A DNA stretch of 64,000 nt, taken from assembly GCF_003334405.1 (NCBI RefSeq), contig NZ_QOWM01000014.1, one strand, 5' to 3'. The translations under genes were made by a program, and so were the position numbers. This DNA is from Escherichia coli (GTDB lineage Bacteria; Pseudomonadota; Gammaproteobacteria; Enterobacterales; Enterobacteriaceae). Below the pieces are notes generated by a model. The model did not search any database. It was not told the DNA's origin and saw only the letters and a program-made list of their open reading frames with translations. Shown one piece after another: positions 22,989-28,135 of this stretch. Numbering within the stretch: position 1 is the stretch's first letter; each line of letters opens with the position of its first letter.

Positions 22989-24185
22989 ATGCTAAAAGTG
23001 TTATTGCTCTTTGTGTTGCTGATTGCGGGGATCGTGGTTGGCCCGATGATTGCCGGCCATCAGGGTTATGTGCTGATCCAGACCGACAACTACAATATCG
23101 AAACCAGCGTCACGGGCCTGGCGATCATATTGATTCTGGCGATGGTAGTGCTGTTTGCCATTGAGTGGCTACTGCGGCGGATCTTCCGCACTGGCGCGCA
23201 CACCCGTGGGTGGTTTGTCGGACGTAAGCGTCGCCGTGCACGTAAGCAGACCGAACAGGCGCTGCTGAAACTGGCGGAAGGCGATTATCAGCAAGTTGAA
23301 AAGCTGATGGCGAAAAATGCCGATCACGCGGAACAACCGGTGGTGAACTATCTACTGGCTGCCGAAGCCGCGCAACAACGTGGTGATGAAGCACGCGCCA
23401 ACCAACATCTGGAACGCGCAGCGGAGCTGGCCGGCAACGACACCATTCCGGTAGAAATCACCCGCGTACGTCTGCAACTGGCCCGTAATGAAAACCATGC
23501 TGCACGCCACGGCGTGGATAAGCTGCTGGAAGTTACGCCACGCCATCCGGAAGTATTACGTCTGGCGGAACAGGCGTATATCCGCACAGGTGCATGGAGT
23601 TCGCTGCTGGATATTATCCCATCAATGGCGAAAGCCCATGTTGGTGATGAAGAACATCGTGCAATGCTGGAACAACAGGCATGGATTGGCCTGATGGATC
23701 AGGCGCGTGCCGATAACGGTAGCGAAGGTTTGCGTAACTGGTGGAAAAACCAAAGCCGGAAAACGCGTCATCAGGTAGCGTTGCAGGTGGCAATGGCGGA
23801 ACATCTTATTGAATGTGACGATCATGATACTGCCCAGCAAATTATCATCGATGGCCTGAAACGCCAGTACGACGATCGCCTACTGCTGCCGATTCCTCGA
23901 CTGAAAACAAACAATCCGGAACAGCTGGAAAAAGTGCTGCGCCAGCAAATCAAAAACGTCGGCGATCGCCCGCTGTTGTGGAGCACACTGGGCCAGTCAC
24001 TGATGAAGCACGGAGAATGGCAGGAAGCATCGCTCGCCTTCCGCGCAGCGCTGAAACAACGTCCGGACGCCTACGATTACGCATGGCTTGCCGACGCGCT
24101 GGACAGACTGCACAAGCCGGAAGAAGCTGCAGCGATGCGTCGCGACGGTTTGATGTTAACGTTGCAGAATAACCCGCCACAGTAG
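22989..24185 (+). CDS. hemY: HemY (TPR-containing inner-membrane protein)
   Basis: 398-aa ORF MLKVLLLFVLLIAGIVVGPMIAGHQGY...; recognised HemY. Confidence 0.9.
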   Translation: MLKVLLLFVLLIAGIVVGPMIAGHQGYVLIQTDNYNIETSVTGLAIILILAMVVLFAIEWLLRRIFRTGAHTRGWFVGRKRRRARKQTEQALLKLAEGDYQQVEKLMAKNADHAEQPVVNYLLAAEAAQQRGDEARANQHLERAAELAGNDTIPVEITRVRLQLARNENHAARHGVDKLLEVTPRHPEVLRLAEQAYIRTGAWSSLLDIIPSMAKAHVGDEEHRAMLEQQAWIGLMDQARADNGSEGLRNWWKNQSRKTRHQVALQVAMAEHLIECDDHDTAQQIIIDGLKRQYDDRLLLPIPRLKTNNPEQLEKVLRQQIKNVGDRPLLWSTLGQSLMKHGEWQEASLAFRAALKQRPDAYDYAWLADALDRLHKPEEAAAMRRDGLMLTLQNNPPQ

Positions 24186-24233
24186 TTCCTTCTCACCCGG
24201 AGGCAAGCACCTCCGGGGCCTTCCTGATACATA

Positions 24234-24440
24234 AAAAAACGCCTGCTCTTATTACGGAGCAGGCGTTAAAACAGGTCTGTATGACAACAAGTGGGTGCTT
24301 CACTCAACGTTGTGTCCATGGTGTCTGATGAGGCATAAGCGACATCTGTCAGTGGACGATAAGCACCGTAAACGGCTCTGCGTCATTCCGGAGTTTATGA
24401 GGCACTAAGGCGAACATAAGAGATGGAATGAGCATCTACT
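24234..24440 (-). ncRNA. glmZ: small RNA GlmZ (SraJ/RyiA), regulator of glmS
   Basis: The minus strand reads GUAGAUGCUCAUUCCAUCUC... at the 5' end and ends in the hairpin CGCCUGCUCCGUAAUAAGAGCAGGCG plus a U7 tail, matching the GlmZ sequence as I recall it; located between hemY and aslA as expected. Confidence 0.85.
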
Positions 24441-24863
24441 CGTTTATTATGCCACAGAGAATCGGGAAATAACATCCCTTAACACTTGTTATGAGATAAT
24501 TCTGTAATCCTCTTTGCTTCCTGAGTAATAACTTCCTGAGTGAATATTTAACCTGAGCTTGATCCTACACATACTTATTATGAATGATAAAATTCATTCA
24601 ATTAATAACACATATATTAATTGCCGTTAAAACTAAAAACAGCATCAATAATCAACGCGATATAATAAACCTGCCTTACATATCAACTGCGCCAGAGGTA
24701 GGATTGAAAACGCTCTCCTGATTTTCCAATTCATTTTCTGGATAAATAAATAATTTATTTTTGTCACTATTATTTATGTAATCATCCTGTCAGGGAGAGG
24801 GATCTCAATTATCAATGCTTAATTACGTCATCATTTTGATGACATGAAACCGGAGCATTTTGC

Positions 24864-26519
24864 ATGGAATTTTCGTTTTCACCCAAACGTCTTGTTGTTG
24901 CTGTCGCCGCCGCTCTTCCTCTCATGGCCAGCGCAGCAGATACCCCGTCAACTGCCACCGCACGCAAAGGCTTTGCCGGATACGATCACCCAAACCAGTA
25001 TCTGGTTAAACCGGCGACCACTATTGCCGACAATATGATGCCAGTAATGCAGCATCCGGCGCAGGATAAAGAAACCCAGCAGAAGCTGGCAGAACTTGAG
25101 AAAAAAACCGGTAAGAAACCGAATGTGGTTGTTTTCTTGCTGGACGATGTGGGCTGGATGGACGTCGGTTTTAACGGTGGCGGCGTGGCGGTGGGTAACC
25201 CTACACCAGATATCGACGCCGTTGCCAGCCAGGGGCTGATTTTAACTTCGGCGTATTCTCAACCAAGCTCTTCCCCAACCCGCGCCACCATTCTCACCGG
25301 ACAATACTCCATCCACCACGGCATTCTGATGCCGCCAATGTACGGGCAACCGGGCGGGCTGCAAGGGTTAACCACGCTGCCGCAGTTGCTGCACGATCAG
25401 GGCTACGTCACTCAGGCCATCGGAAAATGGCATATGGGGGAAAACAAAGAGTCGCAGCCGCAGAACGTTGGCTTTGATGATTTCCGTGGCTTTAACTCGG
25501 TGTCTGATATGTACACCGAATGGCGCGACGTTCACGTCAATCCGGAAGTGGCCCTGAGTCCGGACCGTTCTGAATACATCAAGCAATTACCGTTCAGCAA
25601 AGATGACGTTCATGCGGTGCGCGGCGGCGAACAACAGGCCATTGCCGACATTACGCCGAAATATATGGAAGATCTGGATCAACGCTGGATGGACTATGGC
25701 GTTAAGTTCCTCGACAAGATGGCGAAGAGCGATAAACCATTCTTCCTCTACTACGGCACTCGTGGCTGCCACTTCGATAACTACCCAAATGCGAAATATG
25801 CGGGTAGCTCTCCGGCACGCACCTCGTATGGCGACTGCATGGTGGAGATGAACGATGTGTTCGCTAATCTGTATAAAACACTGGAGAAAAACGGTCAGCT
25901 TGATAACACGCTGATCGTCTTTACCTCCGATAACGGACCGGAAGCCGAAGTACCGCCGCACGGACGCACCCCGTTCCGTGGTGCGAAAGGTTCGACCTGG
26001 GAAGGCGGCGTTCGCGTACCGACTTTCGTTTACTGGAAAGGGATGATCCAACCGCGTAAATCTGACGGTATTGTCGATCTGGCAGATCTCTTCCCTACCG
26101 CGCTGGATCTGGCAGGGCATCCTGGAGCGAAAGTGGCGAATTTAGTGCCGAAAACCACCTTTATCGATGGTGTGGACCAGACATCCTTCTTCCTGGGAAC
26201 AAATGGTCAGTCTAACCGTAAGGCCGAGCACTACTTCCTCAACGGTAAACTCGCTGCTGTGCGTATGGATGAGTTCAAGTATCACGTCCTGATTCAGCAA
26301 CCTTACGCTTATACCCAGAGCGGATATCAGGGTGGATTCACCGGCACAGTAATGCAAACGGCGGGATCGTCGGTGTTTAACCTCTACACCGATCCGCAGG
26401 AAAGCGACTCCATCGGCGTGCGCCATATTCCGATGGGTGTACCGCTACAGACCGAAATGCACGCGTATATGGAGATCCTGAAAAAATATCCACCACGCGC
26501 GCAGATTAAATCTGACTAA
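24864..26519 (+). CDS. aslA: arylsulfatase-family protein AslA
   Basis: 551-aa ORF with signal peptide and sulfatase-like region ([13 protein letters not shown]); recognised AslA. Confidence 0.9.
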
Positions 26520-26546
26520 GCCGGCGCTATCGCTGAGATCTGCCTT

Positions 26547-26652
<106 letters not shown>

Positions 26653-26677
26653 ATCAACCGCAGGCGGCCGCCGATTT

Positions 26678-27913
26678 CTACTTACTCACCACCAGCAAAT
26701 GCGCATGCATAATGTCGCTGGCCGGGCGACCGTGCGCCAGCAAATCAGCCATTGCTTTAAGATATGGCGGTAGATGGCGGAAATAACGCTGATACCCGGC
26801 ACACAAATAATTCAGTCCCGGTTTGCCGCTGGCATCGAGCATGAAGCGGTGTTTCGGGCAGCCTCCCCAGCACGCTTTTAACACGTTACAACTGCGACAC
26901 TGCGCCGGTAACTGCTTAAATTTATCTTCACCAAACGCCTGCTGTTGCGGGGAATCGATCATTTCTGCAATTGTTTGCTGGTGCATATTCCCCAGCCGAT
27001 ATTGCGGATAAACATAGTGATCACAGGCGTAAACGTCGCCGTTGTGCTCAACAATCACCGAGCGCCCACAGGTTGGCTGATGATGGCAAACCGCACCCGG
27101 CGCACCGACAAAATTGGCAAACGCCCATTCGATATTCATCACGAAAATCTTGCCGACGTCGCGTTTGATCCAGTGGTCGAATATCGCCACCAGAAACTCA
27201 CCGAACTCCTCGGGGCGCACCGACCATTCCGTTAGCTCACCCTGAATATCACCAGGCGCATGTAACTTAAGTCCATCGCGGGCAGTTGTTTCATCAGCCA
27301 GGCGCTCGACCACCGGAATAAACTGGATGAATTCGACTCCCGCATCGCACAAAAAATCATATACCTGCAACGGTTGCTGCGCGCTGGTGCGATTAACGCA
27401 GACCAGCACGTTATAGTCGACATGATGTTTTTGCAGGAGCGTCAGGGCACGCATCACCAGCTTATGCGTGGGTCTGCCACCTTTAGTCACGCGATATTGA
27501 TTGTGGATCTCAGGCGGGCCATCCAGCGATAAACCAACAAGAAAATGATGCTCCGCGAGAAACGCGCACCATTCGTCATCCAGCAGCACGCCGTTAGTCT
27601 GGAAGCTGTTACTTATCTTCCTGCCAGCACCATATTTCGCCTGTAGCGCTACGGCACGGCGGTAAAACGCCAGCCCGAGTAGCGTTGGTTCGCCGCCCTG
27701 CCAGGTAAAAGCCACTTCGTTTTGCGGTTCGCTGGCAGCGATATAGTGACGGACATACGCTTCCAGCGTGTCATCGTCCATATGCGTGACTGGCTTTTCG
27801 CGGTAAAGGGATTGTTTTTCGAGATAAAAACAGTAGTCACAGTTCAGATTACAATCGGAACCGCTCGGTTTCGCCATCACATGAAAAGCACGCGTTGGAA
27901 CCTGTTGCAGCAT
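26678..27913 (-). CDS. aslB: radical-SAM anaerobic sulfatase-maturating enzyme homologue
   Basis: Track ORF 26678..27943; the recognised 411-aa AslB starts MLQQVPTRAFHVMAKPSGSDCNLNCDYCFY (CxxxCxxC radical-SAM motif). Confidence 0.88.
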   Translation of the reverse strand: MLQQVPTRAFHVMAKPSGSDCNLNCDYCFYLEKQSLYREKPVTHMDDDTLEAYVRHYIAASEPQNEVAFTWQGGEPTLLGLAFYRRAVALQAKYGAGRKISNSFQTNGVLLDDEWCAFLAEHHFLVGLSLDGPPEIHNQYRVTKGGRPTHKLVMRALTLLQKHHVDYNVLVCVNRTSAQQPLQVYDFLCDAGVEFIQFIPVVERLADETTARDGLKLHAPGDIQGELTEWSVRPEEFGEFLVAIFDHWIKRDVGKIFVMNIEWAFANFVGAPGAVCHHQPTCGRSVIVEHNGDVYACDHYVYPQYRLGNMHQQTIAEMIDSPQQQAFGEDKFKQLPAQCRSCNVLKACWGGCPKHRFMLDASGKPGLNYLCAGYQRYFRHLPPYLKAMADLLAHGRPASDIMHAHLLVVSK

Positions 27914-28021
27914 GGTCGCTCCTTGCCTGAAGTCATCCTTCAATACGTTAAGGGCGAAATCATACCGTGGGGCAATGAGTTATTACGGGCGTTTATTGCG
28001 AAGGGAGGGTGACGAAATGCA

Positions 28022-28050
28022 CAGAAAACAAAAAACCCCGCCGAAGCGGG
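28022..28050 (-). terminator. rho-independent terminator of the tRNA operon
   Basis: Minus-strand hairpin ccccgcttcggcgggg followed by a T-run, immediately 3' of proM. Confidence 0.7.
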
Positions 28051-28058
28051 GTTCAAAA

Positions 28059-28135
28059 TTGGTCGGCGAGAGAGGATTCGAACCTCCGACCCACTGGTCC
28101 CAAACCAGTTGCGCTACCAAGCTGCGCTACTCGCC
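28059..28135 (-). tRNA. proM: tRNA-Pro (UGG)
   Basis: 77-nt reverse-complement match to the tRNA-Pro sequence ending CCA. Confidence 0.95.

Follow-up and report, generated by a model that had tools for sequence, protein, structure and literature searches.

The DNA analysed here (the window) is a 64,000-nucleotide stretch of the Escherichia coli genome in which hemX, hemY, the small RNA gene glmZ (minus strand), aslA (plus strand), aslB (minus strand) and the tRNA genes proM-leuT-hisR-argX succeed one another, as established from the RefSeq annotation, the list of open reading frames (ORFs) and Rfam. hemY extends over positions 22989-24185 of the plus strand (RefSeq annotation and ORF list) and is followed by glmZ, at 24233..24439 on the minus strand, which is recognized by a full-length Rfam match (RF00083, 218.4 bits) with +1 at 24439; the intrinsic terminator of glmZ lies at 24267-24238 on the same strand. 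On the far side of the spacer, a 551-aa ORF (24864..26519, plus strand) codes for an arylsulfatase-like protein, annotated in RefSeq as arylsulfatase AslA. Given that the 5' end of glmZ is at 24439 and the ATG of aslA at 24864, the divergent intergenic interval comprises positions 24440-24863 (424 bp). An earlier note, made from the sequence of the window, had placed a block at 24441-24863; the block is real and situated where the note located it, except for its start, which was one base off and is properly 24440. The locus is that of E. coli K-12, the 424-bp spacer being 100% identical to that of a Keio-collection strain (the interval corresponding to 24440-24863 in NZ_CP087136.1 is 3978538-3978961), and the spacer is found, nearly always in a single copy, in 5424 of the 5426 complete E. 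coli genomes. The spacer allele of 1939 of these 5424 genomes is just 90-95% identical to K-12; between K-12 and a B2-type strain, nucleotide identity is 94.0% in aslA and 97.1% in hemY.

The strong AT-richness attributed to the block by the earlier note is confirmed, and the A/T string quoted there is present at 24742-24779. The spacer has a G+C content of 32.5%, compared with 52.4% for the window, and lies below the flanking genes (hemY 55%, aslA 53%, aslB 53%). A G+C content as low as this is reached in only 0.33% of all 424-bp windows, and the spacer is both the longest and the most AT-rich of the window's 29 annotated intergenic regions that measure 80 bp or more, whose median G+C is 44%. 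The low G+C is uniform along its length, with 31-35% in each sub-block of 60-100 bp. The lowest G+C stretch of the window is found elsewhere, in the coding region yigG-yigF (approximately 7678-8452); these small genes of unknown function (DUF2628), located between rarD and corA, have a G+C content of 33% (yigG) and 36% (yigF) and are compositionally atypical, unlike aslA and aslB.

The glmZ side of the spacer is the better understood one. Reading the minus strand, a sigma-70 -35 hexamer ATGTTA (24470..24475), invariant in Escherichia, is separated by 18 nt from the -10 hexamer CATAAT (24446..24451, positions -12..-7), which is preceded by tgg and invariant in eight Escherichia lineages. The -10 hexamer ends 6 nt ahead of +1, so that the arrangement has the layout of a sigma-70 promoter (spacing of 16-19 nt, 5-9 nt to the 5' end). 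The motif ATGTTA-N15-tggCATAAT (24475-24446) is identical to the promoter motif mutated by Göpel et al. 2011 (NAR 39:1294, PMC3045617), and the expectation that the spacer contains the glmZ promoter is thereby borne out by a promoter that is mutationally defined in the literature. The lacZ fusion used in that work (-424..+32) covers precisely this 424-bp spacer; 5' deletion to -40 left full activity and deletion to -20 killed it, mutation of the -35 element caused a drastic drop in expression, and mutation of the -10 element abolished it (PMC3045617). In the same study the -424..+32 fragment was not shifted by GlrR in EMSA, expression of E. coli glmZ was the same in glrR and rpoN deletion mutants, and it was concluded that glmZ has one constitutive sigma-70 promoter (PMC3045617). 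As the DNA is the same (100% identical to K-12), there is no difference on the glmZ side between the published region and ours; the role of the remaining ~380 bp for aslA was outside the scope of that work. Because the region upstream of -40 is dispensable according to these data, about 380 of the 424 bp have no known role for glmZ. The published deletions and point mutations show that GlmZ is served by one constitutive sigma-70 promoter, carried by the glmZ-proximal ~70 bp. The -40 truncation has a natural counterpart in strain PSS-16, where an IS1A insertion with an adjacent deletion (4051-4816 of its locus) removes the spacer beyond bp 1-50 together with two thirds of aslA (the N-terminal part), so that glmZ retains approximately -50..+1.

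Conservation along the spacer is markedly uneven. Segment identity was measured to K-12 in other Escherichia lineages, including one B2-type E. coli allele. While glmZ itself is 98-100% identical and the coding region of aslA 89-94%, the glmZ promoter block (24440..24509, that is -1..-70) shows 81-99% identity across Escherichia. It is followed by a spacer segment without apparent constraint (24510..24635), where identity is 58-65% (90% in the B2-type E. coli allele) and indels occur, then by a conserved block (24636-24735) with 83-93% identity, as high as coding DNA, and finally by a leader segment (24736-24863) with 80-98%. Within the variable segment there is a 15-bp tandem duplication at 24517-24546, consisting of two copies of CTTCCTGAGT (CTTCCTGAGTAATAA and CTTCCTGAGTGAATA), which is polymorphic in E. 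coli; strain SWHEFF_69 has only one copy. The same segment holds a perfect 9-bp inverted repeat, CAATTAATA-N7-TATTAATTG (24599-24623), partly kept within Escherichia. Across four genera (Escherichia, Kluyvera, Pseudocitrobacter and Superficieibacter) the spacer sequences can hardly be aligned; nevertheless their G+C content stays at 30-34%, and their lengths range from 402 to 496 bp. The blocks that survive across all four are the glmZ -10 element, the GGAG ribosome site, the ATG and one pair of hexamers discussed below. Taken together with the published data on glmZ, this pattern suggests that the spacer is a divergent control region of glmZ and aslA with a mosaic structure, a framework to which we give a probability of roughly 0.75 as a whole.

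The note had further proposed that the DNA is curved and bound by nucleoid proteins, and the two parts of this proposal fared differently. In Table 1 of Shimada et al. 2014 (PMC3946193) the aslA/glmZ spacer is listed among the divergent spacers bound by the RpoD holoenzyme in genomic SELEX, and the same table marks it 'HNS', meaning that it includes one of 987 H-NS SELEX sites. Binding of H-NS in vitro therefore stands. The base composition is of the H-NS type (67.5% A+T over 424 bp), and the 10-mer H-NS motif tCGATAAATT has a single match with two mismatches (24739-24748), which is no more than expected by chance. Curvature is unsupported: a wedge-model estimate, which with its approximate parameters serves as a rough relative ranking only, ranks the block at the window's 57th percentile, and phasing of A-tracts at 10-11 bp is absent.

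H-NS polymerises over AT-rich DNA and can repress a weak promoter together with its leader as long as nothing counteracts it. On this basis, aslA expression would be kept low by H-NS filaments covering a weak aslA promoter and the leader behind it, unless an activator or a particular condition counteracts them, and the strong glmZ promoter, located at the edge of the AT-rich tract, would stay active despite H-NS. The well-known examples are proU and bgl, whose H-NS-bound AT-rich regulatory regions contain upstream and downstream silencing elements. Similarly to these, a long tract with at least 65% A+T spans the weak candidate promoter and leader of aslA and is bound by H-NS in vitro; in contrast to them, the structural genes are not AT-rich and no curvature is predicted. 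Actual silencing of aslA, as proposed in the earlier note, is for us an evenly balanced possibility. Of the genes at the locus, aslB is the only one reported to depend on H-NS: its expression rises 12.9-fold in an hns mutant, an effect that is indirect (via RcsB-P/GadE) and comes from aslB's own promoter.

It should be considered whether the block could be a relaxed, mutation-biased spacer in which nucleoid proteins play no role, its AT-richness being a by-product of a long non-coding gap that contains two ordinary promoters. On the one hand, the central 126 bp (24510-24635) have diverged between Escherichia species to the extent and with the indels described above, intergenic DNA of the window is generally AT-richer than the genes (the median G+C of 44%), and neither H-NS motif enrichment nor curvature is predicted. 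Promoter-like hexamer pairs are also not enriched, because the generic sigma-70 scan of the block gave three matches, none of them the real glmZ promoter, compared with 2.0 +/- 1.4 in shuffles. On the other hand, 32.5% G+C is the extreme of the 29 intergenic regions, two sub-blocks are conserved like coding DNA, and binding of H-NS in vitro is published (PMC3946193). Moreover, G+C remains at 30-34% in all four genera although alignment of their spacers is no longer possible, which argues for constraint on composition. We therefore regard a relaxed spacer as an unlikely explanation and retain the divergent control region as the preferred one.

If the spacer is such a control region, the promoter of aslA has to be sought in it, and being the first gene of a divergent pair aslA must indeed have its promoter there. 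The most suitable candidate is the hexamer pair that survives in all four genera: (C/T)TTACA and TA(G/A)(G/T)AT are kept at a constant spacing of 18 nt, with variable sequence in between. Such fixed spacing with a variable spacer sequence is a classical promoter footprint, and in E. coli it corresponds to a sigma-70 candidate on the plus strand at 24675..24704, with the -35 hexamer CTTACA (24675-24680), an 18-nt spacer and the -10 hexamer TAGGAT (24699-24704), from which a transcription start near 24711 is predicted. A simple scan missed this candidate because just 8 of its 12 positions match the consensus. A different aslA promoter, TTAACA-18-TGTAAT at 24479-24508, was predicted by Shimada et al. 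2014 (PMC3946193); its hexamers are partly conserved within Escherichia and absent in the other genera. Judging by the cross-genus footprint, CTTACA-N18-TAGGAT is somewhat favoured as the aslA promoter. The claim of the earlier note that an aslA promoter is located within the block is thus supported by inference from three sides, namely the position of aslA as first gene of a divergent pair, the binding of RpoD holoenzyme in vitro and the motif shared by four genera.

Upstream of the candidate, at 24636..24661 on the plus strand, there is a conserved element, AAAACAGCATCAATAATCAACGCGAT, which contains ATCAA-TA-ATCAA and would be positioned approximately -50..-75 from the candidate aslA start. 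Escherichia lineages show hardly any variation in it, and Pseudocitrobacter matches it at about 21 of 26 positions; it is possible that this element is a regulator site. Considering the cross-genus conservation as a whole, in the direction of aslA an AT-rich spacer without constraint would be followed first by a conserved block carrying a weak sigma-70-type aslA promoter and next by a leader, likewise AT-rich, of some 150 nt.

A+T content peaks at 24742-24778, inside the putative aslA leader (24711..24863, plus strand, ~153 nt, 80-98% identity within Escherichia). The leader also has a 7-bp palindrome or hairpin (24827-24833 / 24837-24843) and the GGAG ribosome site of aslA (24852-24855, plus strand). 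These features raise the question of whether an unannotated gene is hidden in the block. Its product could be a small protein, a small RNA or a cis-regulatory RNA, for instance a structured aslA leader by which the ribosome site is occluded. A reading of this kind could draw on the 80-98% identity within Escherichia of the sub-blocks at 24636-24735 and 24790-24863, and in the predicted fold of the leader AAUGCUU (24814-24820) pairs with GGAGCAUU (24852-24859) over the ribosome site. In addition, one change affecting both sides of the 7-bp hairpin is seen in E. albertii, and strain E69 has G-U pairs there. However, the structure is not supported by the fold z-score (-1.07) or the covariation term (-0.56), nearly all pairs of the stems are invariant, and in the B2-type E. 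coli allele A-C mismatches break the hairpin stem. The Rfam 15 scan at a permissive threshold (E = 10) returned glmZ only, with nothing inside 24440-24863 at E < 4 and, accordingly, nothing at E = 0.1. Four ORFs of 23-45 aa are contained entirely in the block, and none of them is kept: in other Escherichia they have lost the start or gained stops. A hidden gene is thus quite improbable, and the structured aslA leader, which depends on the predicted fold, may be treated as only a lead.

The divergent control region can be placed in an evolutionary context by comparison of glmZ loci. With a conserved GlmZ pattern 117 loci were found, one genome per species, and the 95 with at least 450 bp upstream of glmZ were used. 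The divergent neighbour of glmZ is aslA at 10 of the 95 loci (six Escherichia lineages, Kluyvera, Pseudocitrobacter and Superficieibacter electus), and the remaining 85, among them Salmonella, Citrobacter, Enterobacter and Raoultella, are without aslA. The two groups do not overlap in composition: the upstream 424 bp have 30-34% G+C with aslA (n=10) and 38-53% without it (n=85), a contrast with a Mann-Whitney p = 2.6e-7 for loci that are phylogenetically non-independent, six of the 10 being Escherichia. Among these 95 species, then, the AT-rich block is confined to loci that have aslA as neighbour. The groups also differ in the glmZ promoter itself. A sigma-54-like core, TGGCAC-N5-TGCA, overlaps the -10 element at 70 of the 85 loci without aslA and at none of the 10 with it; at least one GlrR-like site is present at 67 of the 85 and, again, at none of the 10.

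These differences bear on an upstream enhancer of glmZ, known from the GlrR/sigma-54-type promoters of glmY and of glmZ in Salmonella and Yersinia. Between the promoter types that the earlier note had suggested looking for upstream of glmZ, sigma-70 elements were found (ATGTTA / CATAAT) and sigma-54 elements were absent. Consensus scans of 24440-24863 gave no match to the sigma-54 element TGGCAC-N5-TTGCW with up to two mismatches, none to the GlrR site TGTCN10GACA with up to one mismatch, and none to the IHF consensus WATCARNNNNTTR or the Fis consensus; at the position of the -24/-12 element, the glmZ core of the spacer reads CCCGATTCTCTGTGGCATAAT. The sigma-54-type element is refuted by these empty scans together with the negative EMSA and lacZ results in the literature. 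In the RpoN genomic SELEX survey glmY is listed and glmZ never appears. The E. coli region shares with the GlrR/sigma-54-type promoters its position upstream of a gene of the GlmY/GlmZ family of small RNAs and a remnant of an extended -10 element, TGTG-N-ATAAT. It differs from them in the lack of the -24 GG element, of the three TGTCN10GACA sites (within ~250 bp upstream) and of the IHF sites around the third GlrR site, all of which are missing here; homology to the ancestral enhancer is lost from approximately -40 to -70 upstream of glmZ, where the aslAB cassette is present instead. Even if the frequencies at aslA-less loci mark the enhancer as the ancestral layout and a likeness to the ancestral TGCAATAAT persists in tgGCATAAT, the -10 region of E. 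coli, a GlrR(QseF)/IHF/sigma-54 enhancer in the E. coli spacer has virtually no chance of being real, since the scans are empty, glmZ is missing from the RpoN list, and GlrR non-binding, independence of glrR and rpoN and the sufficiency of -40 (PMC3045617) had already refuted it.

What occupies the place of the ancestral enhancer in the divergent control region is indicated by the distance to the tRNA genes. The nearest tRNA-Pro is ~3.5-3.6 kb from glmZ at loci with aslA and at a median of 306 bp at loci without it, and the homology of E. coli to the proM-glmZ spacers of species without aslA (Salmonella, Citrobacter, Enterobacter, Raoultella and others) ends just past the proM terminator, near 28024. 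In Superficieibacter one species has aslAB and another does not, the indel being 3.47 kb, with breakpoints just past the proM terminator and at glmZ -68, beside a short inverted repeat, ATCCAGAAT(G/A)CTCTGGAT. Conservation within Escherichia likewise falls at approximately -70 of glmZ. From the ends of homology, the tRNA distances and the Superficieibacter indel, we infer an aslA-aslB cassette at approximately 24510..28024, consisting of the AT-rich control region, aslA, aslB and the promoter region of aslB up to the proM terminator, with the block at 24440..24509 remaining outside it. The AT-rich DNA beyond ~24510 would accordingly form the regulatory end of an aslB-aslA cassette of ~3.5 kb, bounded near glmZ -68. 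By extension from the 95 species, insertion of this cassette between the proM tRNA terminator and glmZ -68 would have replaced the ancestral GlrR(QseF)/IHF/sigma-54 enhancer in the genera that carry it. E. coli GlmZ would then be free of QseE/QseF-sigma-54 control, unlike GlmY and unlike GlmZ of Salmonella and Yersinia, because the aslAB cassette took the place of the enhancer.

The cassette is unlike typical foreign DNA because the G+C content of aslA and aslB is ordinary (53%). It resembles tRNA-adjacent genomic islets in its presence/absence polymorphism, both between and within genera, and in its location directly downstream of the argX-hisR-leuT-proM operon. Unlike such islets, it has no integrase, no atypical gene composition and no flanking direct repeats that were noticed, and its junction is past the tRNA terminator, not inside a tRNA gene. 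'Promoter capture', by which the old sigma-54/GlrR region would now drive aslB from beside proM, was considered and rejected, as the cross-genus homology stops at the proM terminator. The aslB-proM spacer (27914-28059) contained no TGGCAC-N5-TTGCW with up to two mismatches in the consensus scan; according to the 2021 RpoN genomic-SELEX paper, the RpoN-dependent promoters experimentally confirmed in RegulonDB include that of aslB.

Some loci depart from both arrangements. Several Citrobacter species have a proM-glmZ spacer of only ~145 bp, with a sigma-54-like or degenerate core and without GlrR-like sites, and in Raoultella there is a sigma-70-only core like that of E. coli, 189 bp from proM, without aslA. 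Comparison of the loci indicates repeated remodelling of the DNA upstream of glmZ.

Two aspects are highlighted regarding the weight of these results. First, an AT-rich, H-NS-binding divergent promoter region is ordinary, and its essentials are already known: the glmZ promoter and the absence of the enhancer were settled experimentally in 2011, and H-NS binding already stands in a published table, so the stakes are low. Second, two modest additions are made here, namely the proposed origin of the AT-rich DNA in a cassette and a candidate position of the aslA promoter. The latter can be tested at a concrete location, and in meningitis-associated E. coli K1 aslA is employed as a marker of virulence. 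The fuller reading joins several parts: insertion of the cassette beside proM would have removed the glmZ enhancer and uncoupled GlmZ from QseE/QseF in Escherichia, Kluyvera, Pseudocitrobacter and one Superficieibacter species, and the block would also carry an aslA promoter common to these genera (with its start near 24711), a regulator site upstream of this promoter and a leader coated by H-NS. We hold this reading tentatively, at somewhat under an even chance. If it is true, a sulfatase cassette would have rewired the regulatory circuit of a small RNA.
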